Below, piece after piece: positions 1-40,074 of a stretch of 64,000 bases of DNA (position 1 is the first letter of the stretch; the number at the start of each line of letters is the position of its first letter). Under the pieces are notes generated by a model, which was not told the origin of the DNA, did not search any database, and saw nothing but the letters and a program-made list of their open reading frames with translations. The DNA lies in assembly GCA_000004985.1 (NCBI GenBank), contig GG738900.1, one strand, 5' to 3'. Source of the DNA: Naegleria gruberi (Eukaryota). A program made the position numbers and the translations under genes.

Positions 1-3000
1 TCAGTGCCAAAATAGTTAATCGATGAGCAATTGCAAGTATTGAAATCTGAACAATTACCTCTCGATGTACAAACCTTAGAATTATTAGATTGAATAGAAC
101 CACATGTGGTCAATTCACATGTATCACCAAAGTAGTTATCTCTGCATGAACAATTGTTGAAAGAGGAACATTCACCTCTTGATGAACAAACTGTTGTTTC
201 CGTGTGGTTAACACCATTACAAGTAAAGTATTGACAATCATTTCCATTATAATGTTCTTCGCATTGGCATCTGTCAAATGAAGCACATTTACCAAAACCA
301 GAACAAACTGATGATGTGTTAGAGGACACTCCATTACATGTTGTAACTTCACATGTTGAACCGTAGTAGTTTGTATCACAATCACAATCATTTACATCAA
401 CACAAGAACCATGACCACTACAAACGCTGGAATCATTACTCAAAATACCATCACAAATGGTAACTTCGCACATTGGACCAAACATATTGGCCATACAAAC
501 ACATGTATTTCCATCAATACAATCACCACGACCAGAGCATGTTGAATTGGAGAATTTTGAAACACCGAAACAATTGAAATTTTCGCATTCACTTCCGTAG
601 TAACCAGCAGAACAATTACAAATATTGTAATCCATACAGGAACCCTTTGAAGAACAAACCTTAGAATCATTAGATTGAATTGAACCACATGTGGTCAATT
701 CACAATCGTTACCAAAGTAGTTGTCTCTACAAGTGCAATTGTTGTAGCTTGAACATTCACCTCTTGAAGAGCAAACTGTTGATTCAGTGTGATTGACACT
801 ATTGCAGGTGAAGAATTGACAATTATTTCCAAAGTAACCTTCATCACATTCACATTTTTCATAGCTTGTACAATGACCTCTTGAGGAACAAACAGATGAA
901 TTCAAATGTTCAATTCCATTACAATTAAAGTATTCACAATTATCACCATAATATCCTTCATCGCATGCACAAGAATCAAAATCTGCACATTGTCCCTTTC
1001 CAGAGCATACATTGGTATCGTTGGAAAGAATTGAATTACAACTAGTTAATTCGCATTCGTCTCCCAAATAATTAAGGAAACATGAACAATTATTGGTTGA
1101 CATGCATGAACCACGTGAATGACAAGCTGTCAAATTGACGTTTAAAATTTCAAAACATTTGAATTCAGAACAATCAGAACCAAATGAATTTTCAAAACAT
1201 TGACAGGAATTAAATTGAGCACAAACACCCTTTCCTGAACATGTCAAATCTGTTTGATTGGACGGAATTCCAAAACACGAAGTAACTTGACAGAATTGAC
1301 CATAATTATTTTCAGTACAATTGCAGTGATCTGTTTCAATGCATTGACCACGACCAGAACAAACAATTGATTCGTTGCTCAACGCTCCATTACATTTGTA
1401 CAATGAACAATCAGGACCATAAGCGTCTGGATCACAAATACAAGTATTCATATCAGAACATTGTCCTCTACCTGAACAAACTAATTGTGATTGATTTGAG
1501 GCAATTGAATAACAATTTGTCACTTGACAATAATCACCATAATAACCCTCTCTACATGAACATTGGTTTGGTGATAAACATTCACCTCTTCCAGAACAAA
1601 CCATTGTTTCATTACTTAAAACAGCATTACAAATAGTAACAGAACAGTTCAATCCAAAGTAATTTGAAGCACATTTACATTCATCTGTACGTGAGCAAAG
1701 ACCATGTCCAGAGCAAACTTTAGATTCTGTGTTATTCAAACCAAAACATGTATGATATTGACAATTATCTCCATAGTATCCTTCTGAACAATTACATTGA
1801 TTGTAATCAGAACAAAGACCTCTTCCAGAACAAACACTCTTATTAGCCATATCGACTCCATAACATGATGTTCTCTCACAGAATTTACCATAATATCCTT
1901 CTGTACAATTACAAGAATCTGTTCCAATACAGTGTCCCCTTGAACTACAAACAATATTGGTAAAATTACTAAATGTGCCATTACATTTAGATATGGAACA
2001 ATCATCACCATACGCATCTGAAAGACAAACACACGTATCGATATCTGAACAATTACCTCTTCCCGAACAAACAGCTTTTTCGGTATTCATTGTTCCACGA
2101 CATGAAAAGACAGAACAAATACTTCCAGAATAACCCAAATTACAAGTACAATTATTGTAAGTTGCACAGAACCCGTGACGGGAGCAAACTTGGTGACTAG
2201 TAGAGGAAACTCCGCCACAAGTTGTATTTTCACAATTTGATCCAAAATATCCTGTATCACAACTACAATGATCAGCTCCAGTACAAGAACCATGAGAACT
2301 ACAAACTGTAGAATTTACAGCTGGAATGCCGTTACAAATTGGAATTTCACAGTTTGAGCCTTCATATCCCAAGGTTTCATCACAATTACAAATGTCCAAA
2401 TGTGTACAGAAACCACGACCAGAACAAACACTAGGAATATTAGTTGGTACCCCAAAGCAACTGGTGATTTCACAGAAATCACCAGAGTAAGTGTTTGGAC
2501 AAACACAAATATCAAGATCAATGCAAGTACCTACACCATTACAGACCTCTGTAGAATTGGAAGAAATAGAATCACAGGATGTAAATTCACAACGTGGTCC
2601 ATAATAACCATCAAGACAAGAACAAACATCAAATCTGGAACAAGATCCTCTTCCTGAACACACCGTAGAATGGTTTGTTGCTTCAATACCAAAGCAAGTT
2701 GTAAGTTCACACCAAGGTCCATAATAGTTTTGAGTACAGTTGCAAGTATCTAGGCCGACACATTTACCATGACCACTGCAAGATTTGGTTTCATTACTAT
2801 AAATATCATTACATGATGTAACTTCACAATTGATTCCATAGAATTCAGGTTGACATACACATGTATCATAATTAACACATGAACCCTTGCCTGAACAAGT
2901 TTCGTTTGATAATCTAGAGATACCAAAACATTCAAAATCTTGGCAAGTATGTCCATAATAACCTTCTAAACATGAACACTTGTCAAAAGCAGTACAATTA

Positions 3001-6000
3001 CCCTTCTCTCCACAAACGGAAGAGTTGGTGGATTCAACACCATAACATGTTGTTATTTCACACCATTTACCATAATAACCATCAGCACAAGAACAATTGT
3101 TTGGTGAAATACAATCTCCTCTTCCTGCACCAGAACATAAACCAACTAATCCATTACATATTGGAATTTCACAATCTGGACCACCATATCCAAGAGTTAA
3201 ATTACAAGTACAGTTATTGTAGAATTCACAAACACCACGTTTGTTACAAGCAAGAGGTGAAGTATTGTTAATACCATTACAAGTTGTGAATTGACACATT
3301 TGTCCATAATAACCAAAATCACATACACACTTGTCTCTTCCAGCACAGTTACCATGTCCACTGCATACATATGTTTCATTACCATAAACACCATAACAAA
3401 TGGAGACAGAGCAGTCATCGCCATAGGAATCTTCCTTACAAATACATTTGTTGTAGTCAATACATTGACCTTTTCCTGCACATGTGAGATTAGAGTGATG
3501 ATCAATTAAATAGCATGAGAAAATATCCAAGCATTCAGAATTTACATAAGGCTCCTTTGGATCACAAGTGATTGGAGCATCAAATGAAGCTTCTTGGAGA
3601 GTAACTTGACCCAATTCCTCAGAATGAACCCAAACTGCACCGTGTATCTTACCTGCAACCCAAAATTCTTGACCATACTTTGCAATAACAGTTCCATGAA
3701 CATGATTGACAAAGACATTTCCGTGAAGTGTTGTACTTAAGATCCAATCAGAAACGGTATTGCCAAAGTAATAAGTAGACCAGAATACATTTCTATATGA
3801 GGCACATTTTTCATATTTGAATTCTGCACCATAATAATGGATATATGGTGCTCTGAACACTACAGGTTCAGTTCCGACAATTACAAACTTGTGACCTTCA
3901 ATTAGCCAACTGTCCCTCAAACAATAGACACCCCCAAATTCAACAATGATGAGTTTTCCTAAAGAATCTGGATTATTAATGATGAAATCACATGGGAGTG
4001 TATTCAATTCATCAACTCTTTTTCCAACCTCATCAACTAGATTTTTGCCAAATTCATCATATGTGTATGTAATTCCATAACTTCCATTTCCAACATAAGG
4101 ATAGACTGGATCAGGGAATAGGAAGGTTGGAGGAGTAATAACCTGAGAAGGAATAGCAATACTTGCTGTCAAGACAGAATTAGCTAGAGAGTTTTTAGCA
4201 AGCAAAGCAGGTTTGTTACTGATCATCTTGTAGCAAGCAAAAATATCACTTTCACATTCAGCACCAGCATAACCACCACGCAAGAACAATNNNNNNNNNN
4301 NNNNNNNNNNNNNNNNNNNNNNNNNNNNNNNNNNNNNNNNNNNNNNNNNNNNNNNNNNNNNNNNNNNNNNNNNNNNNNNNNNNNNNNNNNNNNNNNNNNN
4401 NNNNNNNNNNNNNNNNNNNNNNNNNNNNNNNNNNNNNNNNNNNNNNNNNNNNNNNNNNNNNNNNNNNNNNNNNNNNNNNNNNNNNNNNNNNNNNNNNNNN
4501 NNNNNNNNNNNNNNNNNNNNNNNNNNNNNNNNNNNNNNNNNNNNNNNNNNNNNNNNNNNNNNNNNNNNNNNNNNNNNNNNNNNNNNNNNNNNNNNNNNNN
4601 NNNNNNNNNNNNNNNNNNNNNNNNNNNNNNNNNNNNNNNNNNNNNNNNNNNNNNNNNNNNNNNNNNNNNNNNNNNNNNNNNNNNNNNNNNNNNNNNNNNN
4701 NNNNNNNNNNNNNNNNNNNNNNNNNNNNNNNNNNNNNNNNNNNNNNNNNNNNNNNNNNNNNNNNNNNNNNNNNNNNNNNNNNNNNNNNNNNNNNNNNNNN
4801 NNNNNNNNNNNNNNNNNNNNNNNNNNNNNNNNNNNNNNNNNNNNNNNNNNNNNNNNNNNNNNNNNNNNNNNNNNNNNNNNNNNNNNNNNNNNNNNNNNNN
4901 NNNNNNNNNNNNNNNNNNNNNNNNNNNNNNNNNNNNNNNNNNNNNNNNNNNNNNNNNNNNNNNNNNNNNNNNNNNNNNNNNNNNNNNNNNNNNNNNNNNN
5001 NNNNNNNNNNNNNNNNNNNNNNNNNNNNNNNNNNNNNNNNNNNNNNNNNNNNNNNNNNNNNNNNNNNNNNNNNNNNNNNNNNNNNNNNNNNNNNNNNNNN
5101 NNNNNNNNNNNNNNNNNNNNNNNNNNNNNNNNNNNNNNNNNNNNNNNNNNNNNNNNNNNNNNNNNNNNNNNNNNNNNNNNNNNNNNNNNNNNNNNNNNNN
5201 NNNNNNNNNNNNNNNNNNNNNNNNNNNNNNNNNNNNNNNNNNNNNNNNNNNNNNNNNNNNNNNNNNNNNNNNNNNNNNNNNNNNNNNNNNNNNNNNNNNN
5301 NNNNNNNNNNNNNNNNNNNNNNNNNNNNNNNNNNNNNNNNNNNNNNNNNNNNNNNNNNNNNNNNNNNNNNNNNNNNNNNNNNNNNNNNNNNNNNNNNNNN
5401 NNNNNNNNNNNNNNNNNNNNNNNNNNNNNNNNNNNNNNNNNNNNNNNNNNNNNNNNNNNNNNNNNNNNNNNNNNNNNNNNNNNNNNNNNNNNNNNNNNNN
5501 NNNNNNNNNNNNNNNNNNNNNNNNNNNNNNNNNNNNNNNNNNNNNNNNNNNNNNNNNNNNNNNNNNNNNNNNNNNNNNNNNNNNNNNNNNNNNNNNNNNN
5601 NNNNNNNNNNNNNNNNNNNNNNNNNNNNNNNNNNNNNNNNNNNNNNNNNNNNNNNNNNNNNNNNNNNNNNNNNNNNNNNNNNNNNNNNNNNNNNNNNNNN
5701 NNNNNNNNNNNNNNNNNNNNNNNNNNNNNNNNNNNNNNNNNNNNNNNNNNNNNNNNNNNNNNNNNNNNNNNNNNNNNNNNNNNNNNNNNNNNNNNNNNNN
5801 NNNNNNNNNNNNNNNNNNNNNNNNNNNNNNNNNNNNNNNNNNNNNNNNNNNNNNNNNNNNNNNNNNNNNNNNNNNNNNNNNNNNNNNNNNNNNNNNNNNN
5901 NNNNNNNNNNNNNNNNNNNNNNNNNNNNNNNNNNNNNNNNNNNNNNNNNNNNNNNNNNNNNNNNNNNNNNNNNNNNNNNNNNNNNNNNNNNNNNNNNNNN

Positions 6001-9000
6001 NNNNNNNNNNNNNNNNNNNNNNNNNNNNNNNNNNNNNNNNNNNNNNNNNNNNNNNNNNNNNNNNNNNNNNNNNNNNNNNNNNNNNNNNNNNNNNNNNNNN
6101 NNNNNNNNNNNNNNNNNNNNNNNNNNNNNNNNNNNNNNNNNNNNNNNNNNNNNNNNNNNNNNNNNNNNNNNNNNNNNNNNNNNNNNNNNNNNNNNNNNNN
6201 NNNNNNNNNNNNNNNNNNNNNNNNNNNNNNNNNNNNNNNNNNNNNNNNNNNNNNNNNNNNNNNNNNNNNNNNNNNNNNNNNNNNNNNNNNNNNNNNNNNN
6301 NNNNNNNNNNNNNNNNNNNNNNNNNNNNNNNNNNNNNNNNNNNNNNNNNNNNNNNNNNNNNNNNNNNNNNNNNNNNNNNNNNNNNNNNNNNNNNNNNNNN
6401 NNNNNNNNNNNNNNNNNNNNNNNNNNNNNNNNNNNNNNNNNNNNNNNNNNNNNNNNNNNNNNNNNNNNNNNNNNNNNNNNNNNNNNNNNNNNNNNNNNNN
6501 NNNNNNNNNNNNNNNNNNNNNNNNNNNNNNNNNNNNNNNNNNNNNNNNNNNNNNNNNNNNNNNNNNNNNNNNNNNNNNNNNNNNNNNNNNNNNNNNNNNN
6601 NNNNNNNNNNNNNNNNNNNNNNNNNNNNNNNNNNNNNNNNNNNNNNNNNNNNNNNNNNNNNNNNNNNNNNNNNNNNNNNNNNNNNNNNNNNNNNNNNNNN
6701 NNNNNNNNNNNNNNNNNNNNNNNNNNNNNNNNNNNNNNNNNNNNNNNNNNNNNNNNNNNNNNNNNNNNNNNNNNNNNNNNNNNNNNNNNNNNNNNNNNNN
6801 NNNNNNNNNNNNNNNNNNNNNNNNNNNNNNNNNNNNNNNNNNNNNNNNNNNNNNNNNNNNNNNNNNNNNNNNNNNNNNNNNNNNNNNNNNNNNNNNNNNN
6901 NNNNNNNNNNNNNNNNNNNNNNNNNNNNNNNNNNNNNNNNNNNNNNNNNNNNNNNNNNNNNNNNNNNNNNNNNNNNNNNNNNNNNNNNNNNNNNNNNNNN
7001 NNNNNNNNNNNNNNNNNNNNNNNNNNNNNNNNNNNNNNNNNNNNNNNNNNNNNNNNNNNNNNNNNNNNNNNNNNNNNNNNNNNNNNNNNNNNNNNNNNNN
7101 NNNNNNNNNNNNNNNNNNNNNNNNNNNNNNNNNNNNNNNNNNNNNNNNNNNNNNNNNNNNNNNNNNNNNNNNNNNNNNNNNNNNNNNNNNNNNNNNNNNN
7201 NNNNNNNNNNNNNNNNNNNNNNNNNNNNNNNNNNNNNNNNNNNNNNNNNNNNNNNNNNNNNNNNNNNNNNNNNNNNNNNNNNNNNNNNNNNNNNNNNNNN
7301 NNNNNNNNNNNNNNNNNNNNNNNNNNNNNNNNNNNNNNNNNNNNNNNNNNNNNNNNNNNNNNNNNNNNNNNNNNNNNNNNNNNNNNNNNNNNNNNNNNNN
7401 NNNNNNNNNNNNNNNNNNNNNNNNNNNNNNNNNNNNNNNNNNNNNNNNNNNNNNNNNNNNNNNNNNNNNNNNNNNNNNNNNNNNNNNNNNNNNNNNNNNN
7501 NNNNNNNNNNNNNNNNNNNNNNNNNNNNNNNNNNNNNNNNNNNNNNNNNNNNNNNNNNNNNNNNNNNNNNNNNNNNNNNNNNNNNNNNNNNNNNNNNNNN
7601 NNNNNNNNNNNNNNNNNNNNNNNNNNNNNNNNNNNNNNNNNNNNNNNNNNNNNNNNNNNNNNNNNNNNNNNNNNNNNNNNNNNNNNNNNNNNNNNNNNNN
7701 NNNNNNNNNNNNNNNNNNNNNNNNNNNNNNNNNNNNNNNNNNNNNNNNNNNNNNNNNNNNNNNNNNNNNNNNNNNNNNNNNNNNNNNNNNNNNNNNNNNN
7801 NNNNNNNNNNNNNNNNNNNNNNNNNNNNNNNNNNNNNNNNNNNNNNNNNNNNNNNNNNNNNNNNNNNNNNNNNNNNNNNNNNNNNNNNNNNNNNNNNNNN
7901 NNNNNNNNNNNNNNNNNNNNNNNNNNNNNNNNNNNNNNNNNNNNNNNNNNNNNNNNNNNNNNNNNNNNNNNNNNNNNNNNNNNNNNNNNNNNNNNNNNNN
8001 NNNNNNNNNNNNNNNNNNNNNNNNNNNNNNNNNNNNNNNNNNNNNNNNNNNNNNNNNNNNNNNNNNNNNNNNNNNNNNNNNNNNNNNNNNNNNNNNNNNN
8101 NNNNNNNNNNNNNNNNNNNNNNNNNNNNNNNNNNNNNNNNNNNNNNNNNNNNNNNNNNNNNNNNNNNNNNNNNNNNNNNNNNNNNNNNNNNNNNNNNNNN
8201 NNNNNNNNNNNNNNNNNNNNNNNNNNNNNNNNNNNNNNNNNNNNNNNNNNNNNNNNNNNNNNNNNNNNNNNNNNNNNNNNNNNNNNNNNNNNNNNNNNNN
8301 NNNNNNNNNNNNNNNNNNNNNNNNNNNNNNNNNNNNNNNNNNNNNNNNNNNNNNNNNNNNNNNNNNNNNNNNNNNNNNNNNNNNNNNNNNNNNNNNNNNN
8401 NNNNNNNNNNNNNNNNNNNNNNNNNNNNNNNNNNNNNNNNNNNNNNNNNNNNNNNNNNNNNNNNNNNNNNNNNNNNNNNNNNNNNNNNNNNNNNNNNNNN
8501 NNNNNNNNNNNNNNNNNNNNNNNNNNNNNNNNNNNNNNNNNNNNNNNNNNNNNNNNNNNNNNNNNNNNNNNNNNNNNNNNNNNNNNNNNNNNNNNNNNNN
8601 NNNNNNNNNNNNNNNNNNNNNNNNNNNNNNNNNNNNNNNNNNNNNNNNNNNNNNNNNNNNNNNNNNNNNNNNNNNNNNNNNNNNNNNNNNNNNNNNNNNN
8701 NNNNNNNNNNNNNNNNNNNNNNNNNNNNNNNNNNNNNNNNNNNNNNNNNNNNNNNNNNNNNNNNNNNNNNNNNNNNNNNNNNNNNNNNNNNNNNNNNNNN
8801 NNNNNNNNNNNNNNNNNNNNNNNNNNNNNNNNNNNNNNNNNNNNNNNNNNNNNNNNNNNNNNNNNNNNNNNNNNNNNNNNNNNNNNNNNNNNNNNNNNNN
8901 NNNNNNNNNNNNNNNNNNNNNNNNNNNNNNNNNNNNNNNNNNNNNNNNNNNNNNNNNNNNNNNNNNNNNNNNNNNNNNNNNNNNNNNNNNNNNNNNNNNN

Positions 9001-11789
9001 NNNNNNNNNNNNNNNNNNNNNNNNNNNNNNNNNNNNNNNNNNNNNNNNNNNNNNNNNNNNNNNNNNNNNNNNNNNNNNNNNNNNNNNNNNNNNNNNNNNN
9101 NNNNNNNNNNNNNNNNNNNNNNNNNNNNNNNNNNNNNNNNNNNNNNNNNNNNNNNNNNNNNNNNNNNNNNNNNNNNNNNNNNNNNNNNNNNNNNNNNNNN
9201 NNNNNNNNNNNNNNNNNNNNNNNNNNNNNNNNNNNCACCATAATAGTTTTCGGTACAATTACAAAGATCTGGACGGTAACAAATACCACGTCTATCCTTA
9301 GTACATACGCCAGTAAGTCCATTACAGATTGGAATTTCACAGTTAAAGCCTCCATATCCAAATGTACTATTACATGTGCAGTTATTATAAAAATCACAAG
9401 AACCACGTCCACTACAGACATCTGGAGAGTTGTATTCAATATCGGCGCAAGTTGTCCATTCACACCAAGTTCCATTATAATTAGGATAACAGCTACATGT
9501 ATCCTTTGCAATACAAGCGCCATGACCATTGCTACAAACTGATGATTCAGTACCTAGAGTACCGTTACACATGGCAATAGAACAATCTTGGCCGTATTGA
9601 TCTGGTAAACACAAGCAAGTATTGTTACCTATACAGTAACCATTATTTGAGCATCCATCTTCAACAATTGATTTGGAATTGAAACAGAATGTAAGTAAAC
9701 ATTGCTCATTAATGTATGGTTCGTATCCGTTGAATGTGATTGGAGGAGTGAATGTTACATCGAATAATAGCATCTGTGTACCACCCATAAACCATAAAGC
9801 GCCCTGAATAGTATCATAAATTTCAATTTGATGGTATGGAGCCATTCCTACCACTGTACCGTGAACATTTCCAGAGAAAAAATTACCATTTCTACCATAG
9901 TCCCAAGTCAACCAAAAGACATTTCTATAGGAGGCACATAACAGATAGTAAAAAACGGCATTATAATAATTGACGTATGGAGCCTTAAAAACAACAGGCT
10001 CAAGACCATGGATAATAAAAATATGATCCTTAATTGTGATACCATTAGGGAAACAATACACACCACCATGCTTGATAACAGTAATATTCTGTAATTCATC
10101 TTGACTATTAATGGTATGTGTACAATCCATGTACAATAATTCCATGGATTTCTTTTCCATTTCTTGAATAATCAACTCTGTCATCGGATCATTTTGAGGT
10201 TTTGAAATGACAACATCATTTCCACTTGGTTCGTACATGACTGGAGTTGTTGGTGAGTAGGCATGAGAAACCTGAATGTCAGGTAAGGCGAAACTTGCCT
10301 GTAATTCCTTTTTAGAGTTTCTGGCAATCATAATAGGTTTGGAACTGATAAGTTTGTAGCCAGCAAATATATCTACAGCACAAGCCTCACCAATGAAACC
10401 AGTTTGGCAAGTACAATTGTTGTATGAAATACAAGTACCGTGTCCAGAACAAACTAAAGGAGAATTAGAATCATCACTGAAACATTGTGTCAATTCACAA
10501 TTAGAGCCAAAATAATTATCTACACAAGAGCAAGAGTCAGGAGCAGTACAGTTACCTAGTGAGGTACAAACAGAAGCATTAGAGAAATGCACACCAGAAC
10601 AATTCCAATGTTGGCACTTATCACCATAATATCCATACAGACAATTACAGTTATCAGAACCAATACAGTCACCGTTACCAGAGCAAACAGTTGAATCGTT
10701 TGATCCTATACCATAACACCAATGAACGGTGAAAATCTCTTCATCACAATTGTTACCAGAGTATCCATCAGTGCACAAGCATTTGTCTAAGGCTGTGCAA
10801 TTTCCTTGGCCATTACATACCAGTGAGGAGTTTGACAATACACCAAAGCATTGAGTAACTTGGCAATCATTTCCAAAATAATTGGAACTACATTGACAAT
10901 TATTTAAATCTACACAAGCGCCATTACCAGAGCAAACAGTTGAATCGTTTGATCCTATACCATAACACCAATGAACGGTGAAAATCTCTTCATCACAATT
11001 GTTACCAGAGTATCCATCAGTGCACGAGCATTTATCTAAGGCTGTGCAATTTCCTTGGCCATTACATACCAGTGAGGAGTTTGACAATACACCAAAGCAT
11101 TGGGTAACTTGGCAATCATTTCCAAAATAATTGGAACTACATTGGCAATTATTTAAATCTACACAAGCGCCATTACCAGAGCAAACAGTTGAATCGTTTG
11201 ATCCTATACCATAACACCAATGAACGGTGAAAATCTCTTCATCACAATTGTTACCAGAGTATCCATCAGTGCACAAGCATTTGTCTAAGGCTGTGCAATT
11301 TCCTTGGCTACTACATACCAGTGAGGAGTTTGACAATACACCAAAGCATTGAGTAACTTGGCAATCATCTCCAAAATAATTGGAACTACATTGACAATTA
11401 TTTAAATCTACACAAGCGCCATTACCAGAGCAAACTCTAGAGTCATTACTTAGAAGTTCATTACATTCAAAAACAGAACATAAAGGACCATAATAACCAC
11501 TATCACACAAACAATTATCTGGTGATTGGCAACCATGTCCTGACAATATTAACGGATTGATTTGTGGATATTCCAAGCATTCTATATATTCACAATTGTT
11601 GCCTGAATATCCTGTAAGGCAACTACAAGTCTCATCAGCTATACAAGTTCCGTTACCTGAGCAAACCAATAGATCGGTTGAATCCAACGAATTACAGGTA
11701 AAGGCTTGTACACACTTAGTTGAAAAAACTACTAAGAGCGTTACTAACACAACACACTTAATAAATAATGAGGTGTTGATTCCGCTCAT
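1..11789 (-). CDS. Giant secreted EGF-like (tenascin-type) repeat protein. ATG at 11789 with a signal peptide; the 3' end continues off the window. The ORF is interrupted by the assembly gap. Architecture is SP - EGF modules - module X - EGF modules - [gap] - module X - at least 35 EGF modules.
   Basis: Minus-strand translation from 11789 gives MSGINTSLFIKCVVLVTLLVVFSTKCVQA, then CxSGxGxCxxxxxCxCxxGYYGxxCE repeats of ~32 aa. The same frame is continuous from 4289 down to 1 (translated by hand, no stops). The frame at 11789 and at 4289 is identical (7500 nt apart). The ORF track lacks it because the frame never terminates inside the window. Confidence 0.8.
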   Translation of the reverse strand, partial: MSGINTSLFIKCVVLVTLLVVFSTKCVQAFTCNSLDSTDLLVCSGNGTCIADETCSCLTGYSGNNCEYIECLEYPQINPLILSGHGCQSPDNCLCDSGYYGPLCSVFECNELLSNDSRVCSGNGACVDLNNCQCSSNYFGDDCQVTQCFGVLSNSSLVCSSQGNCTALDKCLCTDGYSGNNCDEEIFTVHWCYGIGSNDSTVCSGNGACVDLNNCQCSSNYFGNDCQVTQCFGVLSNSSLVCNGQGNCTALDKCSCTDGYSGNNCDEEIFTVHWCYGIGSNDSTVCSGNGACVDLNNCQCSSNYFGNDCQVTQCFGVLSNSSLVCNGQGNCTALDKCLCTDGYSGNNCDEEIFTVHWCYGIGSNDSTVCSGNGDCIGSDNCNCLYGYYGDKCQHWNCSGVHFSNASVCTSLGNCTAPDSCSCVDNYFGSNCELTQCFSDDSNSPLVCSGHGTCISYNNCTCQTGFIGEACAVDIFAGYKLISSKPIMIARNSKKELQASFALPDIQVSHAYSPTTPVMYEPSGNDVVISKPQNDPMTELIIQEMEKKSMELLYMDCTHTINSQDELQNITVIKHGGVYCFPNGITIKDHIFIIHGLEPVVFKAPYVNYYNAVFYYLLCASYRNVFWLTWDYGRNGNFFSGNVHGTVVGMAPYHQIEIYDTIQGALWFMGGTQMLLFDVTFTPPITFNGYEPYINEQCLLTFCFNSKSIVEDGCSNNGYCIGNNTCLCLPDQYGQDCSIAMCNGTLGTESSVCSNGHGACIAKDTCSCYPNYNGTWCEWTTCADIEYNSPDVCSGRGSCDFYNNCTCNSTFGYGGFNCEIPICNGLTGVCTKDRRGICYRPDLCNCTENYYGXXXXXXXXXXXXXXXXXXXXXXXXXXXXXXXXXXXXXXXXXXXXXXXXXXXXXXXXXXXXXXXXXXXXXXXXXXXXXXXXXXXXXXXXXXXXXXXXXXXXXXXXXXXXXXXXXXXXXXXXXXXXXXXXXXXXXXXXXXXXXXXXXXXXXXXXXXXXXXXXXXXXXXXXXXXXXXXXXXXXXXXXXXXXXXXXXXXXXXXXXXXXXXXXXXXXXXXXXXXXXXXXXXXXXXXXXXXXXXXXXXXXXXXXXXXXXXXXXXXXXXXXXXXXXXXXXXXXXXXXXXXXXXXXXXXXXXXXXXXXXXXXXXXXXXXXXXXXXXXXXXXXXXXXXXXXXXXXXXXXXXXXXXXXXXXXXXXXXXXXXXXXXXXXXXXXXXXXXXXXXXXXXXXXXXXXXXXXXXXXXXXXXXXXXXXXXXXXXXXXXXXXXXXXXXXXXXXXXXXXXXXXXXXXXXXXXXXXXXXXXXXXXXXXXXXXXXXXXXXXXXXXXXXXXXXXXXXXXXXXXXXXXXXXXXXXXXXXXXXXXXXXXXXXXXXXXXXXXXXXXXXXXXXXXXXXXXXXXXXXXXXXXXXXXXXXXXXXXXXXXXXXXXXXXXXXXXXXXXXXXXXXXXXXXXXXXXXXXXXXXXXXXXXXXXXXXXXXXXXXXXXXXXXXXXXXXXXXXXXXXXXXXXXXXXXXXXXXXXXXXXXXXXXXXXXXXXXXXXXXXXXXXXXXXXXXXXXXXXXXXXXXXXXXXXXXXXXXXXXXXXXXXXXXXXXXXXXXXXXXXXXXXXXXXXXXXXXXXXXXXXXXXXXXXXXXXXXXXXXXXXXXXXXXXXXXXXXXXXXXXXXXXXXXXXXXXXXXXXXXXXXXXXXXXXXXXXXXXXXXXXXXXXXXXXXXXXXXXXXXXXXXXXXXXXXXXXXXXXXXXXXXXXXXXXXXXXXXXXXXXXXXXXXXXXXXXXXXXXXXXXXXXXXXXXXXXXXXXXXXXXXXXXXXXXXXXXXXXXXXXXXXXXXXXXXXXXXXXXXXXXXXXXXXXXXXXXXXXXXXXXXXXXXXXXXXXXXXXXXXXXXXXXXXXXXXXXXXXXXXXXXXXXXXXXXXXXXXXXXXXXXXXXXXXXXXXXXXXXXXXXXXXXXXXXXXXXXXXXXXXXXXXXXXXXXXXXXXXXXXXXXXXXXXXXXXXXXXXXXXXXXXXXXXXXXXXXXXXXXXXXXXXXXXXXXXXXXXXXXXXXXXXXXXXXXXXXXXXXXXXXXXXXXXXXXXXXXXXXXXXXXXXXXXXXXXXXXXXXXXXXXXXXXXXXXXXXXXXXXXXXXXXXXXXXXXXXXXXXXXXXXXXXXXXXXXXXXXXXXXXXXXXXXXXXXXXXXXXXXXXXXXXXXXXXXXXXXXXXXXXXXXXXXXXXXXXXXXXXXXXXXXXXXXXXXXXXXXXXXXXXXXXXXXXXXXXXXXXXXXXXXXXXXXXXXXXXXXXXXXXXXXXXXXXXXXXXXXXXXXXXXXXXXXXXXXXXXXXXXXXXXXXXXXXXXXXXXXXXXXXXXXXXXXXXXXXXXXXXXXXXXXXXXXXXXXXXXXXXXXXXXXXXXXXXXXXXXXXXXXXXXXXXXXXXXXXXXXXXXXXXXXXXXXXXXXXXXXXXXXXXXXXXXXXXXXXXXXXXXXXXXXXXXXXXXXXXXXXXXXXXXXXXXXXLFLRGGYAGAECESDIFACYKMISNKPALLAKNSLANSVLTASIAIPSQVITPPTFLFPDPVYPYVGNGSYGITYTYDEFGKNLVDEVGKRVDELNTLPCDFIINNPDSLGKLIIVEFGGVYCLRDSWLIEGHKFVIVGTEPVVFRAPYIHYYGAEFKYEKCASYRNVFWSTYYFGNTVSDWILSTTLHGNVFVNHVHGTVIAKYGQEFWVAGKIHGAVWVHSEELGQVTLQEASFDAPITCDPKEPYVNSECLDIFSCYLIDHHSNLTCAGKGQCIDYNKCICKEDSYGDDCSVSICYGVYGNETYVCSGHGNCAGRDKCVCDFGYYGQMCQFTTCNGINNTSPLACNKRGVCEFYNNCTCNLTLGYGGPDCEIPICNGLVGLCSGAGRGDCISPNNCSCADGYYGKWCEITTCYGVESTNSSVCGEKGNCTAFDKCSCLEGYYGHTCQDFECFGISRLSNETCSGKGSCVNYDTCVCQPEFYGINCEVTSCNDIYSNETKSCSGHGKCVGLDTCNCTQNYYGPWCELTTCFGIEATNHSTVCSGRGSCSRFDVCSCLDGYYGPRCEFTSCDSISSNSTEVCNGVGTCIDLDICVCPNTYSGDFCEITSCFGVPTNIPSVCSGRGFCTHLDICNCDETLGYEGSNCEIPICNGIPAVNSTVCSSHGSCTGADHCSCDTGYFGSNCENTTCGGVSSTSHQVCSRHGFCATYNNCTCNLGYSGSICSVFSCRGTMNTEKAVCSGRGNCSDIDTCVCLSDAYGDDCSISKCNGTFSNFTNIVCSSRGHCIGTDSCNCTEGYYGKFCERTSCYGVDMANKSVCSGRGLCSDYNQCNCSEGYYGDNCQYHTCFGLNNTESKVCSGHGLCSRTDECKCASNYFGLNCSVTICNAVLSNETMVCSGRGECLSPNQCSCREGYYGDYCQVTNCYSIASNQSQLVCSGRGQCSDMNTCICDPDAYGPDCSLYKCNGALSNESIVCSGRGQCIETDHCNCTENNYGQFCQVTSCFGIPSNQTDLTCSGKGVCAQFNSCQCFENSFGSDCSEFKCFEILNVNLTACHSRGSCMSTNNCSCFLNYLGDECELTSCNSILSNDTNVCSGKGQCADFDSCACDEGYYGDNCEYFNCNGIEHLNSSVCSSRGHCTSYEKCECDEGYFGNNCQFFTCNSVNHTESTVCSSRGECSSYNNCTCRDNYFGNDCELTTCGSIQSNDSKVCSSKGSCMDYNICNCSAGYYGSECENFNCFGVSKFSNSTCSGRGDCIDGNTCVCMANMFGPMCEVTICDGILSNDSSVCSGHGSCVDVNDCDCDTNYYGSTCEVTTCNGVSSNTSSVCSGFGKCASFDRCQCEEHYNGNDCQYFTCNGVNHTETTVCSSRGECSSFNNCSCRDNYFGDTCELTTCGSIQSNNSKVCTSRGNCSDFNTCNCSSINYFGT
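3505..4240 (-). repeat. Non-EGF conserved module X, copy 1 (~235 aa), embedded between EGF runs
   Basis: Translation gives DIFACYKMISNKPALLAKNS...GGVYCLRDSWLIEGHKFVIVGTEPVVFRAPYIHYYGAEFKYEKCASYRNVFW...HGTVIA.... This is alignable to copy 2 through shared motifs DIFAxYKxISxKP, GGVYC, EPVVFxAPY, CASYRNVFW and HGTV. Confidence 0.7.
4291..9235. other. Assembly gap (4,945 N)
   Basis: An uninterrupted N run. ORFs 4223..9529 and 4258..9258 in the track are artefacts of translating N as X. Confidence 0.99.
9700..10385 (-). repeat. Non-EGF conserved module X, copy 2
   Basis: Translation gives DIFAGYKLISSKPIMIARNS...HGGVYCFPNGITIKDHIFIIHGLEPVVFKAPYVNYYNAVFYYLLCASYRNVFW...HGTVVG.... It is a diverged paralogue of copy 1 (roughly 40-45% identity by eye). 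Confidence 0.7.
10670..11440 (-). repeat. Near-identical tandem triplication of a 249-bp (83-aa, EGF-module) unit inside the giant gene
   Basis: The string 'agcaaacagttgaatcgtttgatcctataccataacaccaatgaacggtgaaaatctcttcatcacaattgttaccagagtatccatcagtgcac...' recurs at 10682, 10931 and 11180. The period is exactly 249 nt with only a few substitutions. A partial fourth copy starts at 11429. Confidence 0.9.
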
Positions 11790-12188
11790 TTTGAGTACGT
11801 TTTCTTAGTTATTGTTATTATTATTATTAGTATCGTTAATAAAATTAAGCGTTTTTTACGTTTCTACGTTGTTGCGTTTTTTGTTTTTTTGCAAGGGTCC
11901 TTAATTGTTGCACATTCAATCATGGCGGGCACGTATCTATTATTAAACCTAGCCTTATTCATGTGGAGTGTTCTTCATAAGAACCCTTAGATGAAACATG
12001 TTTCCATCTCCTTTTGGACAGCATCTTGTTTTGTTAACCGTTATTACCAAGACTTGGCAGTTGAACAATTTATGGGAATGAATACTAAAATCGGCCACTT
12101 TGATGCCATTTTAATTATTGTGAAATGTCTCTTTTGAATTTTTTATAATATTAATAAATATATGAAATTTAAAACTCATATTTTGTTA

Positions 12189-12362: not shown

Positions 12363-14272
12363 TTGATCAACAGAAAAAATAAAAGCAACACAAAAGAAGA
12401 TTACAACATCATGTTCAACACAAGAGCAACTATTGTTGCTGCTGCTTCTCTAACAAGACTTGTCGTAAAATCCAAAGGTTCATTCTCCAACTCTACCAGA
12501 GCCTCACCAACAAAATTACTATTATTGAATGGAGGTTCTCAACAAACGACCAGTCGATCGGCTACTAATACAACCTCACCTGCGTCATCATCATCATCAT
12601 CGGAACAAACAATTCCATCTTCATGTCCTTATCATCAAAAGGATGCAACTTCCAACAAGGAAGAAGTAAAACCTCAACCATGGACTGAAGTGCCAGGACC
12701 AAAGCCATTGCCACTGATTGGTAATTTGATTCAAGTTCAAACCAATTCTAAAAACATGTCAGAATATTTAATGACACTATGTAAACAATATGGAGATTTA
12801 GTTAAATTGACTGTTTTTAATTTTAACATGTTGATGATTGCTAATCCACATTTATTAGGAGAATTATATAAAAAGGAAGAAAGAAGAAATGAAGTTGACA
12901 GTTTTAGACATTACAAATTGAAGAAGGGTCAAATTCTTACTCCAGTTGAAATGAGATATGATGAAGATTGGTATTCTATTCGTCAGCTTTATAACATTGC
13001 AATGAAACCAGAATATCAAGAAACCATTACACTTCCTCAATTATCTGAATTGAATGGAGACTTCATGAGAAGATTGATTAAGAGTTTGCAATCTGTCAAA
13101 GGAAGTGAAGCATTCAAATATGTCAACAGTTCAGAAACTAATTCAAGATATGCCTTTGATGTTGTCATGAAGGTCTTTCTTGTAAGTTCTATTCCAAAAT
13201 ATTTAAATATTTATATTTTAATACTAATTGAAATAATGTAGGGTGTGAAAATGACAGATGAAGTGACAAGCACTCTTCCATTCGATATTAATGAATTTGT
13301 CAATTATACTGTCCATGCCACTGATGTTGCTGTTAGATTGACAACCAAATTCCCAATGTACAAATATTACAGGACTCAAGAGTATAAAAGTTTTGAAAAT
13401 TTAATGGATAAATCATCAGAATATGCAAGATATTGCATTCAAAGATTCAAAACCAATCCATCTCAAAACGCCAGATTATTAGAATTGATTGAGGAAAGAG
13501 CTAAAGATCAAGATAGACCAGATGAAAGAGTTGAAAGCGTCTTGATGCAATTTTTACAAGGTGGTGTCGATATCACTGTTAGAATTATGAATAATTGCTT
13601 CCATAGATTAGCTCACCATCCTGAATGCCAAGAAAAGATTTATAAGGAATCTGTAGCAGTTTTTGGTGAACCATCATTGGAAGAAGTTACATCTGAAGAT
13701 GGACTTTCTATCAATTTGGAGCAGTACAAAAAGCTCAAGTATACCAAACACTTTATTGATGAGGTATTAAGATTGAATGCATTTGGTTATCTCACCATGG
13801 GAAGAAAATTGGATCAGGATACCGAAATTGGAGGATATATGATTCCAAAGGACACAATGATTCTTGCAATGCAAAGATGGGCAACTCTCAAAGATGAATT
13901 TGTTCCTCGTGGAGAAGAATTCATTCCAGAACGTCATGAAAAGGGTTCTCCATTAGCACCAGTCAATAATTTTGTTTCGCTACCGTAAGTAGTAGTTTGT
14001 TGTGGAATATCCCAATAATTTTCTAATATGAAAGATTTGGAGTTGGAGCTCGTAAGTGTCCTGGTTCACGTGTAGCAACCACAGAACTGCTCATTGGAAT
14101 TATCAATGCTGTCAGACATTTCCAGTTGTGCAACAATAATCTAGCATCATTCCCACCATCTTCTTTTGATCAATCCTTGCTTTATATTGATTCTGAAAAG
14201 TATCCACTTTATTTCACACCAAGAGATCATGTTAAGGAATTTGTAGAAAAGAACTCCAAGGTGTCTCAATAA
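12363..14272 (+). CDS. Cytochrome P450 monooxygenase, 3 exons: join(12363..13181, 13242..13984, 14035..14272). The N-terminus resembles a mitochondrial presequence.
   Basis: The last exon carries the heme-binding motif FGVGARKCPG. The introns are GTAAGT...TAG of 60 and 50 nt and restore the frame. The N-terminus is MFNTRATIVAAASLTRLVVKSKGSF. Confidence 0.85.
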
Positions 14273-27546: not shown

Positions 27547-30081
27547 ATGGTAGCTTCCATACATCCTGTAAACTCTGACGACCAAGATGACAACCCTCAC
27601 CAAGCAGTCAAATCAGAAACAGACTCAGTTTTATCCGATCACACCTCTTCCTTCAATGCTCAATCCATCAAATTCTGCCTAATCTTCCTAATTAGTGGAC
27701 TAGTTATCTTGAGTGTTCTCGTCCTCTCTGGCACATGGTTAGCAAGTTTTGCTCCAGCCATTACAAAATCATCCAATGCTGAAAGAGATTCCGAATTGAA
27801 ATCAATCATTAATTATATTGAAACAACTTTTAAAGAATTGGTCATGTCTTCGGTGAATATTAAACAGCAAATGGTTGGGGATGGGATTGATCCGTATGAT
27901 GAGAAGGTGACTCGACAAAAGACATTTAGTGGATATAAGGTTAGTATTTAATTGTAATCTTTTACAAAAATTGTAATATTGTAATATTTCCAAATATAGA
28001 GTGTTAAGAAAAATCATGATGGAATGATAATATCGAGCTATGTTGGTGATCCAAACAATTACTGTTTTGGAACAATCAATTGGGGCAATGGCTCTGCAAT
28101 CTTTAACATTACCAAAGTTGACCAAAAAATTTACTATTGCGACAATTGGGAAGAAACACTTTTTTGTAATTCAAGTTCAACTCCAGATGAGATTGCAGCT
28201 TCTTTTGATTTAAGTGTCATTATCGCTCAATGCAAGGACACGCCAACTGTCATTTCCTACACGCCAAGTTATGCTGACCCAGCCATGCCTCAATATGTCT
28301 TTATTTCATTGATTAATTGTGTGGCTAATCCAGTTACCAACAAATTTTGGTATTATTACGGAAATGATTTGACTACGGGTTCAATTTCTGAATTTTTACA
28401 AAAGAAAGTTGAAACTTTGGAAGGATCGAGAAGTTTCATTGTCGAAACTTCGTCTGATTATTTGATTGCAGTTGATAATTCAGTGTCTATTTCAAGATGG
28501 GGAAGTGATGGTGCATTGGTGAGAGAAACAGCTCTTACTGTATCAGATTCGTCTATTAATTCGATTACTGCCACTACACGAAACTTTCATCAAAAATGGA
28601 AAGATTTCAAATGCAATGAAATCGAAGTTTCAACCTCATCAACAGATTACATCTCTGTTTATAGACTATGTACAGATACAAACATTGATTGGATCATTGT
28701 CTTGTCCATTCCTCAATGGAAATACATTGGATCAACAATCATTGCTGTCATCACTTCCTTAATTGGAAGTTTACTAATCGTAACTATTGGAATCGTATTG
28801 GGAATTGTTGTGTCCATAAAGATTGTTAAGCCATTCAGAAATTTGATGGATCTATTCGAAAGTGTGGCCAATATGGATTTGGATAACATTGAAGTGATTC
28901 CAAGTTATTTCTCCGAAGTTAAATCTTTGCAGAAACATTTCGTCAACATGGTCAAACAGATTAAACTCTATCGATCTTTCATTCCTGCTCATATATTGTC
29001 AGAATTGGATTCAGGTAATGAGGAGGAGAAAGTTGGAGGAGTTAAAGCTGCTTCAGGAAAGGTGGAGGAAAGTATGAGATCTAGCTCTGAACGAAACTCG
29101 ATGGAAAGTGGAAATTCGAAAGAATCAAGGATGGGTGCTCATTCATCAAAGCACTCATCGAATCAATCGTCAAGAAAGAGATATTCGAAAGATATTAATC
29201 GATTTGCTCTTTATTTGGAAAAGAGAACTTTTACTGTTATTCAATTAAGGATAAAAGGCCTTAACGAATTGTTGGGAAATACAGAATACGAAAATGTTAC
29301 CAAGATTCTAAGTGAAATATTCGAAACTATTACTGTGAGCAGTAAGCTATATGGTGTTCATGTTTCTGGTTTGGAAAATGACAATATTTACATTTCCATT
29401 AACGCTTCATCCAATCAGACGAATCATGAAGAGAAGGCAGCTACTCTTTCTCGAGCCTTAGAAGAAAGATTACTCAAACTCAAGTATTCGAAATGGAAAA
29501 ATTTGGAAAGTTTCAAGAAGAAACCATTCTTACTGGAAGATTTGACCTTTCGAATGGCCATCCACTCTGTTCAAAGTCACGTTGGTAATATTGGAACGAA
29601 TGACAGTAAGGCCTTCACCATACTTGGAAGTGGCAAGACCAATCTATCCGAAATGATTGAACTTGCCGATTCTCTTGACATTTCAATTGTTTGTTCTGAC
29701 AAAATCAAGGAAAAGATTGACGTTTCATTCCAGACAAGATTTTTGGATTTCCAACAATTTCTCAATGATTCACTCGTCATGTCAAGCTCAGCCACTAATA
29801 GAAATAGTAACAATGATGAGATGGTTAATTGTATGACGAGAGGTTCTGTGCACGAGTTGGGAGTTTCCAATCATGTTCAAGATGATGAATGGTTATACGA
29901 ATTGCAAGAGAAGGAGAAGAAACAAAAGTGGACACTGTATAATCAGGGAGTTGAGCATTTCTTGGAAGGAGATTTCGAATTGGCTTTGGAAAAGTTTAGT
30001 CAACATGCGATGAAAGATCCTACAGATAAGGCAGCAATTCGAATGGTGGAAAAGTGCAAGGACGTTGGAAATAATTTCTAA
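27547..30081 (+). CDS. Receptor-like membrane protein with a degenerate adenylyl/guanylyl-cyclase homology domain, 2 exons: join(27547..27939, 28000..30081), ~824 aa
   Basis: N-terminal TM, a Cys-containing ectodomain, a second TM (IIAVITSLIGSLLIVTIGIVLGIVV), then a cyclase-like core. The second half, FRMAIHSVQSHVGNIGTNDSKAFTILGSGKTNLSEMIELA, aligns to (L/M)RIGIHSGxVxAGVVG…GDTVNxASRMES with key residues substituted. Confidence 0.6.
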
Positions 30082-36430: not shown

Positions 36431-37702
36431 TCAGTACCTGTCATAGGACCTTCGCTGATAAACAATTTCACCTGTTTTCTTGGTATATTTTATGGCATCA
36501 ATGTACGAAGAGGATGGTGCAATAATGTACAAGTACTTTAAATTATTTAAAACTTCACTTTCAGCAATTGCCTGTCTTCCTTCATATCCAAACAAATTAC
36601 AAGATACATCCAGATAGGTCAGATTTGTCATATTTTGACTTTTGGCAAGTGAATTGATACCTCGAAATCCTAAACAATTTACAGATAGGTCAAGAAATGT
36701 CAAATTTTTCACATAAGAGGAAGAACTCAACTCTATTAGGTCCTCTTCCTTCACTCCTGAAGAACTCAAATTCAAATAGGTCAAATTCTTCATTGAAGAG
36801 CTATTGGATATTGCTTTCAAAATTCTGGTTAGCATTGTTTTGTTGTTGGCAAAGTTCAAACTTGTTAATTTGGCCAAACATGCAACGAATTTTGCAACAT
36901 CACTGGAGAGATTAACATCAGTTGGATTAGTGCAATACATCCACTTTAAGGTGAGGTGAGTAAGATTTGTAAATCTGCTTAGTAATTTCAAAACTGGACC
37001 AGAAAATTCACTTCCAGAAAGATTTAACTTTCTCAAACTGTGATTCAAGGTTTCATTGGCTGCTATTAATTCAACATGCTGCAAACTAAAGCTATTCATT
37101 GATAAATCCAAACATGTCAATTGTGATTTACATTCCGATATTTGTTGAATGATGGAAGGTGAATGTAAATTGTTGCATCTCAAATGTAATTCCTTTAATT
37201 TTGTAAAATATTCCAACTCTAACATTTCAATATCATTGTCATTTAAGTTCAACACTCTAATCTTTTTTTCATGACCTTTCAGAAAAGATGTTGATCTAAT
37301 ATTTTGTGATTCCAAGTGCCATTCTTCCACATTCTCAAAAGCTCCACAGTTAAATAATGCAGCAACACCTTCAGAATTTAATCTCTCTTGGGAAGGTAGC
37401 TCCTGTCCATATAATTTTACAATTTTCAAATTTTCAAAAGGTTTTGTAATTTTTTGTAAAGCTACTCCAACTCTATTTGATGTATAACCACACACCAATG
37501 AATGTGATGATGATAAACATGTATTAAACCATCGTCTGCATTCCATCCACCGATCGATCATTAATCTGGAGCTAAACTTTAACTGTCTCACCTCTATGCA
37601 TTCATGCCAACATCTACAGACCGCTGTAAAGTGAATAATTTCATACTGATCACAAAATTCCATGATCAGATTGATGAGCTCTGCTGGGAGATGTTGTGCC
37701 AT
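36431..37702 (-). CDS. F-box / leucine-rich-repeat (RNI-like) protein, 423 aa
   Basis: N-terminus LPAELINLIMEFCD (F-box) followed by LxxLxLxxN LRRs (LNLSGS, LTYLNLSSSGV, LTFLDLSVNCLG). Confidence 0.7.
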   Translation of the reverse strand: MAQHLPAELINLIMEFCDQYEIIHFTAVCRCWHECIEVRQLKFSSRLMIDRWMECRRWFNTCLSSSHSLVCGYTSNRVGVALQKITKPFENLKIVKLYGQELPSQERLNSEGVAALFNCGAFENVEEWHLESQNIRSTSFLKGHEKKIRVLNLNDNDIEMLELEYFTKLKELHLRCNNLHSPSIIQQISECKSQLTCLDLSMNSFSLQHVELIAANETLNHSLRKLNLSGSEFSGPVLKLLSRFTNLTHLTLKWMYCTNPTDVNLSSDVAKFVACLAKLTSLNFANNKTMLTRILKAISNSSSMKNLTYLNLSSSGVKEEDLIELSSSSYVKNLTFLDLSVNCLGFRGINSLAKSQNMTNLTYLDVSCNLFGYEGRQAIAESEVLNNLKYLYIIAPSSSYIDAIKYTKKTGEIVYQRRSYDRY

Positions 37703-39621: not shown

Positions 39622-39740
39622 GGCTACGGCCATATCACGATTCATGCACCTCATCCCGTCCGATTTGAGAAGTTAAGTATCGTCGAGCCACATCAGTACT
39701 GAGGTTGGAGACAACTTGGGAACCTGTGGTGCTGTAGTCT
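39622..39740 (+). rRNA. 5S ribosomal RNA gene (dispersed copy)
   Basis: GGCTACGGCCATATCACG…CATCCCGTCCGATTTGAGAAGTTAAGT…CAGTACTGAGGTTGGAGACAACTTGGGAACCTGTGGTGCTGTAGTC matches the universal 5S helices and loop C/E. It is very close to Dictyostelium 5S as recalled from memory. A T-run follows. Confidence 0.9.
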
Positions 39741-40000: not shown

Positions 40001-40074
40001 GCAGCGATAGATCAGTTGGTTAGATCGTAAGCCTAACACGCTTAAGGTCGCGGGTTCAAGCCCCGCTCGCTGTA
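40001..40074 (+). tRNA. tRNA-Val (anticodon AAC)
   Basis: Cloverleaf folded by hand: acceptor GCAGCGA/TCGCTGT (G1-U72), D-arm GATC…GATC, anticodon stem TAAGC/GCTTA with loop CTAACAC, T-arm GCGGG-TTCAAGC-CCCGC, discriminator A. It is followed by TTTT at 40078. Confidence 0.9.

Follow-up and report, generated by a model that had tools for sequence, protein, structure and literature searches.

We analysed a stretch of 64,000 nucleotides from the amoeba Naegleria gruberi (contig GG738900.1, assembly GCA_000004985.1; hereafter, the window), in which the minus strand of the first 11.8 kb encodes long arrays of epidermal growth factor (EGF) modules with two copies of a further module, module X, set into them. 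Profile similarity and structure prediction identify module X as a diverged, lineage-restricted β-solenoid of about 240 residues belonging to the DUF3494 / Ice_binding-like family (PF11999), and each copy is followed by the same four EGF modules. In our reading, the window probably holds the 5′ and central parts of one giant N. gruberi surface-protein gene built with such β-solenoid cassettes, whose product would act in adhesion or sensing.

The gene is visible as two minus-strand pieces on either side of an assembly gap, the single run of N in a window that otherwise has a G+C content of about 34-35%. The N piece lies in an open frame from 11804 to 9237, with its first Met at 11789 and an upstream in-frame stop at 11805-11807; the C piece is a second open stretch, from 4289 to 3, that is stop-free at both ends. 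The two frames run uninterrupted for 856 and 1,429 codons. Because the second stretch stays open to base 3, the gene extends past the window edge, as the sequence-only reading had proposed, and no stop codon occurs before that edge, which places the C-terminus of the gene outside the window. That reading had also put a signal peptide at 11789, and inspection by eye agreed: the product begins with MSGINTSLFIKCVVLVTLLVVFSTKCVQA, directly followed by FTC, and shows a basic n-region, an 11-residue hydrophobic core and V-x-A at −3/−1 of the presumed cleavage point. A metagenomic relative (P0002, below) has a hydrophobic stretch at the equivalent place, directly before the same FTCN...VCSGNGTCIAD EGF module. 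The length of over 11.8 kb first given to the gene holds for the span including the gap; real sequence in the 3-11789 region comes to 6,840 nucleotides (2,280 codons) and the other 4.9 kb are N. If the nominal gap size is right, the gene spans about 3,900 codons within the window. Its parts, in the order of translation, are as follows.

11703..11789, minus strand: start codon and signal-peptide-like N-terminus, residues 1-29 (MSGINTSLFIKCVVLVTLLVVFSTKCVQA); first Met of the frame, read by eye.
10380..11696, minus strand: first EGF run, residues 32-470, with ten six-cysteine modules and one five-cysteine module; Pfam and pattern count.
10675..11435, minus strand: tandem duplication within the first EGF run; Tandem Repeats Finder, score 1473.
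9687..10379, minus strand: module X copy 1, residues 471-701 of the N piece; similarity to copy 2 and to module 1 of the paralogue P0001.
9237..9686, minus strand: four-EGF cassette after copy 1, its fourth module cut by the gap; best match, the block after copy 2.
4291..9235, no strand: assembly gap of 4,945 N.
3516..4253, minus strand: module X copy 2, residues 13-258 of the C piece.
3060..3515, minus strand: four-EGF cassette after copy 2; 52.5% identical to the cassette after copy 1, 173 bits.
3..3059, minus strand: distal EGF run of about 26 further modules, open at the window edge; open frame, Pfam and pattern.

The EGF modules are three-disulfide units of 39 residues arranged head to tail with four-residue linkers. 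In Pfam, EGF_TEN and EGF_Teneurin matched the N piece at E values of 1e-46 and 2.5e-44 and the C piece at 5.7e-101 and 6.9e-75; EGF_2 also matched the N piece. Counting by the six-cysteine pattern gave 42 complete modules, 13 in the N piece and 29 in the C piece; with one degenerate five-cysteine module and three cut by the gap or the window edge, about 46 are visible. The figure of at least 70 modules proposed earlier is not reached in the visible sequence and needs extrapolation across the Ns. The N piece contains 23 N-x-S/T sequons and the C piece 47. Tenascin and teneurin arrays are made of the same tandem six-cysteine Pfam types, but their other defining domains, including fibronectin III, fibrinogen and YD-repeat domains, were not seen by Pfam in the window or in the paralogues, and the likeness of the gene to these proteins is at the level of the module only.

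Within the first EGF run, the repeat at 10675-11435 consists of 3.1 copies of a 249-nucleotide unit (83 amino acids, two EGF modules) that are 97% identical, which indicates recent expansion or homogenisation inside the gene. Since the copies of this two-EGF unit have diverged so little, the EGF arrays appear to be still expanding, and such near-identical repeats are therefore the probable cause of the assembly break at this locus.

The two copies of module X are 39% identical (BLASTP, E 5e-49), and the peptides DIFAxYK, GGVYC, EPVVF, CASYRNVFW and HGTV are invariant between them. Two copies with these motifs had been noted at 3505-4240 and 9700-10385; the present boundaries differ only slightly. 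With the two window copies as query, HMMER was run exhaustively over 1.84 billion representative proteins and detected module X in only four of them (P0001 to P0004); a fifth N. gruberi member (P0026) matched a profile built without it:

P0001, N. gruberi EFC41344: 4,968 amino acids, five modules in one gene model, E 1.8e-227.
P0002, from a 3.9-kb ENA metagenome contig: 554 amino acids, one module, E 1.4e-60.
P0003, N. gruberi EFC36178: 1,832 amino acids, two modules, E 1.3e-10.
P0004, N. gruberi EFC36341: 2,641 amino acids, three modules, E 7.8e-9.
P0026, fifth N. gruberi member: one module, E 4e-43 against the profile built without it.

The only relative outside N. gruberi, P0002, is encoded at 565-2229 on the plus strand of contig k127_130209 (ENA ERZ929261; 36% G+C). 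Its hydrophobic N-terminus is followed by four EGF modules, a single module X of the first-module type (as module 1 of the window gene and of P0001) and another three EGF modules. The frame then breaks off partway through an EGF module, at the very point where an unrelated convergent gene (2116-3840, minus strand) ends; P0002 may be a truncated gene or come from a chimeric metagenome contig. Neither the JGI metagenomes nor 185,579 bacterial and archaeal genomes yielded a relative when searched with the conserved peptides of a five-copy alignment, which argues against recent transfer from a sampled prokaryote. Across these searches and the HMMER search, the subfamily occurred only in N. gruberi and a single environmental contig. 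A word-indexed protein search returned no matches to one module or to an alignment of 13 copies, despite exact segments of four proteins of the collection being among the queries; queried with the C piece, it returned generic EGF proteins and P0026, with no self-match and without P0001, which is 49% identical over 1,016 residues. This search missed the module X family, and its negatives are not to be read as absence. None of the N. lovaniensis, N. fowleri and Acrasis proteins returned by the C-piece search carried module X. In other large EGF proteins of Naegleria, this EGF scaffold is combined with NHL, RGS, jacalin or lectin-like domains.

Comparison with P0001 defined the duplicated unit. 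Searched against P0001, the four EGF modules that follow copy 1 in the window matched best the five blocks directly after the five modules X of that protein (162-184 bits), while other EGF blocks scored at most 135 bits. The unit is thus module X plus four specific EGF modules that always follow it, which sharpens the original proposal of a segmental duplication of EGF modules together with module X. Simple collapse of the two visible cassettes as the origin of the gap was ruled out, as the cassettes are only about 52% identical.

We next placed module X in a family through its paralogous copies and its predicted structure. A profile of 13 copies, searched against 177,635 PDB sequences, matched four chains of ice-binding proteins (6a8k, E 2.4e-4; 7bwx, 5.5e-4; 7bwy, about 6e-4; 6bg8, 5.9e-3) and one unrelated chain (6akz, E 0.81), and the alignment to the ice-binding proteins covers the GVY...VF...A..NVFW...G.l.A core. 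When the 13 copies were scanned singly, PF11999 was the sole recurrent Pfam match, found in three; a P0003 copy scored 23.0 bits and a P0004 copy 18.7. The P0026 copy, scanned separately, scored 28.5 bits (profile positions 6-204 of 208). No copy reached the gathering score of 28.7 bits, so that the matches are formally sub-threshold and mark a diverged subfamily. NCBIfam gave one marginal match, to IBP_CFB, in one of the 13 copies (E 0.028), and none of the 13 matched Pfam PF20597 or NCBIfam TIGR04215 (choice-of-anchor A / pAdhesive_15) at E<=10.

The structural evidence converged on the same family. AlphaFold2, given the 13-copy alignment, modelled window copy 2 with a predicted local distance difference test score (pLDDT) of 84.5 and a predicted template-modelling score (pTM) of 0.83, as a long helix followed by many short strands; a first model built from two sequences was poor (pLDDT 49.9) and served as a side check only. 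Foldseek searches of the PDB with the 13-copy model returned 26 matches at E<=1e-3, all of them DUF3494 ice-binding proteins, and the next match stood at E 0.098. In the model, module X shows the IBP-1 fold that characterises PF11999, a β-solenoid braced by a long α-helix. Sequence identity to the ice-binding proteins among these structural neighbours is 10-18%, and ComZ, from a thermophile, is among the proteins sharing the fold. The lectin or jelly-roll fold suggested earlier is contradicted by the Foldseek neighbours. The idea of a novel domain likewise falls, since profile and structure searches tied module X to a known one; what stands of the earlier statement that the module could not be placed is that the window copies alone lack a Pfam match.

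Among the DUF3494 proteins compared (IBPv 5uyt, AnpIBP 7bwx, ColAFP 3wp9, SfIBP_1 6bg8, FfIBP 4nu2 and TisAFP 3vn3), sequence likeness to module X is weak but specific and lies at the GVY...NVFW core. Multi-domain forms exist in this family too: 5uyt has two domains, and the domain of SfIBP_1 sits on extender domains. Unlike these proteins, module X has conserved Cys and aromatic positions, lacks the ice-binding tetrapeptide motif in the window copies, and occurs in up to five copies within eukaryotic EGF arrays, joined in the paralogues by a REJ domain and a membrane span; the host, a mesophilic heterolobosean amoeba, also differs from those of the systems compared. The literature searched contained no paper linking Naegleria to DUF3494 or to the Ice_binding-like domain.

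Given the family to which module X is assigned, we asked what its ligand might be. Ice is unlikely, for three reasons. Neither window copy has the T-A/G-x-T/N motif, which 10 of the 13 copies lack in all, ice-binding sites being poorly defined by sequence; the conserved positions are bulky or aromatic (Y, F, W, H, R), in contrast to the small-residue flat faces, rich in Thr, Ala and Gly, of ice-binding proteins; and NEG-M is a mesophilic laboratory strain. The window copies contain about 6% Thr. Even so, the modules could be true ice-binding domains that form an ice adhesin or a freeze-protection coat, resembling bacterial SfIBP_1 on its extender string: the close structural neighbours are all experimentally studied ice-binding proteins, including 6bg8, the DUF3494 domain of SfIBP_1, and a multi-module layout borne on extenders suits surface binding. 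For SfIBP_1 itself, a role as an ice adhesin has been suggested (Vance et al., 2018, as cited in PMC10796529). We find this explanation improbable, as the motif, composition and conserved positions described above speak against it, identity to ice-binding proteins is low, among algae, reports of DUF3494 ice-binding proteins come from cold-adapted species only (PMC10796529), and the fold occurs in a thermophile (ComZ) and also serves adhesion away from ice, as in the diatom Trailins, where a structurally equivalent domain is adhesive and is predicted not to bind ice (bioRxiv 10.1101/2023.03.06.531300).

Indeed, the Trailins provide the best functional analogy for the module X protein. Their choice-of-anchor A / pAdhesive_15 domain (PF20597), found also in bacterial surface proteins, puts a β-helix like that of ice-binding proteins into extracellular adhesive proteins of organisms not associated with ice. 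Unlike the Trailin domain, module X has no sequence match to PF20597 and is nearer to PF11999, and where the Trailins are secreted with Pro/Thr/Ser-rich regions, the window protein has EGF arrays. By this analogy, adhesion or sensing at the cell surface would be the most likely function.

To determine whether the two pieces belong together, we compared them with P0001. In P0001, residues 2-492 correspond to the N piece and residues 2660-3653 to the C piece, with 48-49% identity in each alignment. The P0001 segment between the two aligned regions is 2,168 amino acids long and contains three modules; the nominal gap holds 1,649 codons. In a neighbour-joining tree with 500 bootstraps, window module 1 grouped with P0001 module 1 in 474 replicates (54% identity) and with the P0002 module in 488, and window module 2 paired with P0001 module 5 in 380; the two window modules paired with each other in none of the 500. 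Because the window modules pair with modules 1 and 5 of P0001, the modules multiplied before the two genes separated, and the pairings, taken with the alignment, suggest that the window shows the two ends of a P0001-like gene whose gap, by the same analogy, may hide further cassettes of module X and EGF modules. The interval between the last pre-gap and first post-gap codon (4290-9236) is 4,947 nucleotides, or 3 x 1,649, and the reading frame is therefore kept across the nominal gap; this is weak evidence for continuity, with a one-in-three chance of arising at random and gap sizes being estimates.

The sequence-only reading had left two possibilities, one giant protein or two tandem genes, and the P0001 comparison favours a single gene, with the junction itself hidden in the gap. 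On the two-gene alternative, two paralogues would lie in tandem and in the same orientation: a shorter first gene, made up of a signal peptide, an EGF run, a single module X and a few EGF modules, would end inside the gap, and the second would begin there. Family members with few modules do exist (one in P0026, two in P0003, three in P0004), and P0002 was called as a 554-amino-acid protein with one module of the first-module type. P0002 gives no help here, however, because its frame halts within an EGF module at the convergent gene and it looks truncated or chimeric. Beside the gap, neither visible piece shows a stop or a new start. Every complete paralogue finishes with a stalk, a REJ domain and a membrane span, none of which is present in the N piece, and the C piece is without an N-terminus. 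The window modules are counterparts of modules 1 and 5 of the five-module P0001, not of one another. We therefore consider two genes unlikely.

Given that the C-terminus of the gene falls outside the window, we turned to the paralogues for an indication of how the protein might end. P0001, P0003, P0004 and P0026 share a C-terminal region preceded by Asn/Ser/Thr-rich tracts, and each has one membrane span and a cytoplasmic tail. Pfam identified a REJ domain in P0003 (E 3e-18) and P0001 (E 1.8e-17), and P0026 has a precomputed PF02010 match; P0004, in which the C-terminal region is homologous, had no REJ match at E<=0.01. Directly before the membrane span, P0001, P0003 and P0004 carry, as read by eye, a C-x-C-x-[KR]-[FL]-T-N-V-F motif, which differs from the canonical GPS sequence C-x-C-x-H-L-T-x-F-A of REJ/GPS receptors. 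In the JGI protein P0012, also read by eye, the canonical GPS sequence C-D-C-T-H-L-T-S-F-A-V stands at this position. The GPS/GAIN region that may follow the REJ domain in the Naegleria paralogues would thus be diverged and possibly non-cleaving. In combining EGF arrays with a Pfam REJ domain, the N. gruberi paralogues P0001, P0003, P0026 and P0020 recall the REJ/GPS receptors (sea-urchin REJ and the polycystin-1 family), but they differ in having no 11-span channel-like region. By analogy with these paralogues, the window gene would probably also end in a REJ domain and membrane span.

Together, these observations point to a product that would enter the secretory pathway and become a heavily N-glycosylatable, giant type-I surface glycoprotein. 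Behind the signal peptide, long EGF arrays would act as stiff spacers, into which cassettes of a β-solenoid of about 240 residues and four particular EGF modules would be set. The cassettes arose through segmental duplication, and the gene itself was duplicated later. Several β-helix modules with flat faces would be held off the membrane by the EGF rods, where they might bind substratum, prey, polysaccharide or another surface or ligand.

Several points weigh against this account. The two window copies found no match in a plain Pfam scan at E<=10, and a profile of the five closest copies found none in the PDB at the same threshold; because the closest copies alone match nothing, the sequence link to ice-binding proteins runs through the diverged paralogous copies, and the AlphaFold2 model is built on a shallow alignment of only 13 sequences. 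The motif test that speaks against ice is a weak one, ice-binding sites being poorly conserved in sequence, and the soil and fresh water inhabited by N. gruberi can freeze. The surface role is drawn by analogy, as is the C-terminal anchor, which would lie beyond the window. The gap covers about 40% of the putative gene and could contain a stop and a new start, and P0001, on which the one-gene argument leans, is a predicted gene model. Finally, no gene model for the window locus was found among the protein collections searched.

This last point would also fit a decaying pseudogene or a scaffolding artefact that joins unrelated EGF-gene fragments, and a gap beside near-identical internal repeats is a typical trouble spot in Sanger-era assemblies. 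Frames of 856 and 1,429 codons at about 35% G+C are far beyond chance length, though, the six-cysteine pattern is intact in 42 modules, and both fragments lie on the same strand, colinear with the two ends of P0001, all of which makes this explanation highly improbable. We thus retain a single, intact giant gene as the preferred interpretation.

The assignment changes the standing of module X from a candidate novel domain to a diverged member of the DUF3494 fold family, and that of the protein to an unusual variant of known parts. The DUF3494 family has mainly been discussed for ice binding; here a mesophilic amoeba carries the module, as many as five times in one protein, among EGF arrays and, in the paralogues, with a REJ domain and a membrane span, which adds to a growing case for the fold as a general surface-binding device. 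It also provides a specific candidate protein for adhesion to substrate or prey in the heteroloboseans, for which adhesion molecules are, to our knowledge, poorly defined, and it draws attention to a giant gene that is unannotated or unresolved in the reference assembly. More tentatively, and with some doubt, we raise the possibility that N. gruberi or its close lineage turned an ice-binding-type β-solenoid, possibly gained by gene transfer, into a ligand module, present in up to five copies, of single-pass receptors of REJ/GPS type borne on EGF rods. If true, these proteins would form a previously undescribed class of receptors with which amoebae adhere or sense prey, and one not represented among the annotated proteins of N. 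fowleri, N. lovaniensis and Acrasis that the searches returned.

The gene lies in an ordinary eukaryotic neighbourhood. Four neighbouring open reading frames (ORFs) are identical to N. gruberi NEG-M proteins, all from one 312,004-bp scaffold: SSRP1 (EFC39409), EFC39411, a PX-domain protein (EFC39358) and the branchpoint-binding protein (EFC39360). Other genes nearby encode a cytochrome P450, a flavin monooxygenase, Tudor-SN and a Sec7 exchange factor. The cytochrome P450 gene (12363-13988, plus strand) is divergent from the EGF gene and consists of two ORFs, 12363-13241 and 13245-13988, that match Pfam p450 positions 2-160 and 175-399, a pattern that fits a very short intron or a frame break. 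A 685-amino-acid ORF at 28024-30081 (plus strand) shows by eye a hydrophobic stretch, possibly a membrane span; it had no Pfam match at E<=1e-5, and its exact sequence was not found in the protein collection. Two RNA genes lie among the protein-coding genes of this nuclear scaffold:

39622-39740, plus strand: 5S rRNA gene, 98.6 bits, 260 bp upstream of the tRNA-Val(AAC) gene.
40001-40074, plus strand: tRNA-Val(AAC) gene.

Just before them, the adjacent genes at 36431-37702 and 37762-39441 (both minus strand) encode products that by eye appear rich in leucine-rich repeats, with N-termini resembling F-box motifs, and may form a small tandem family.

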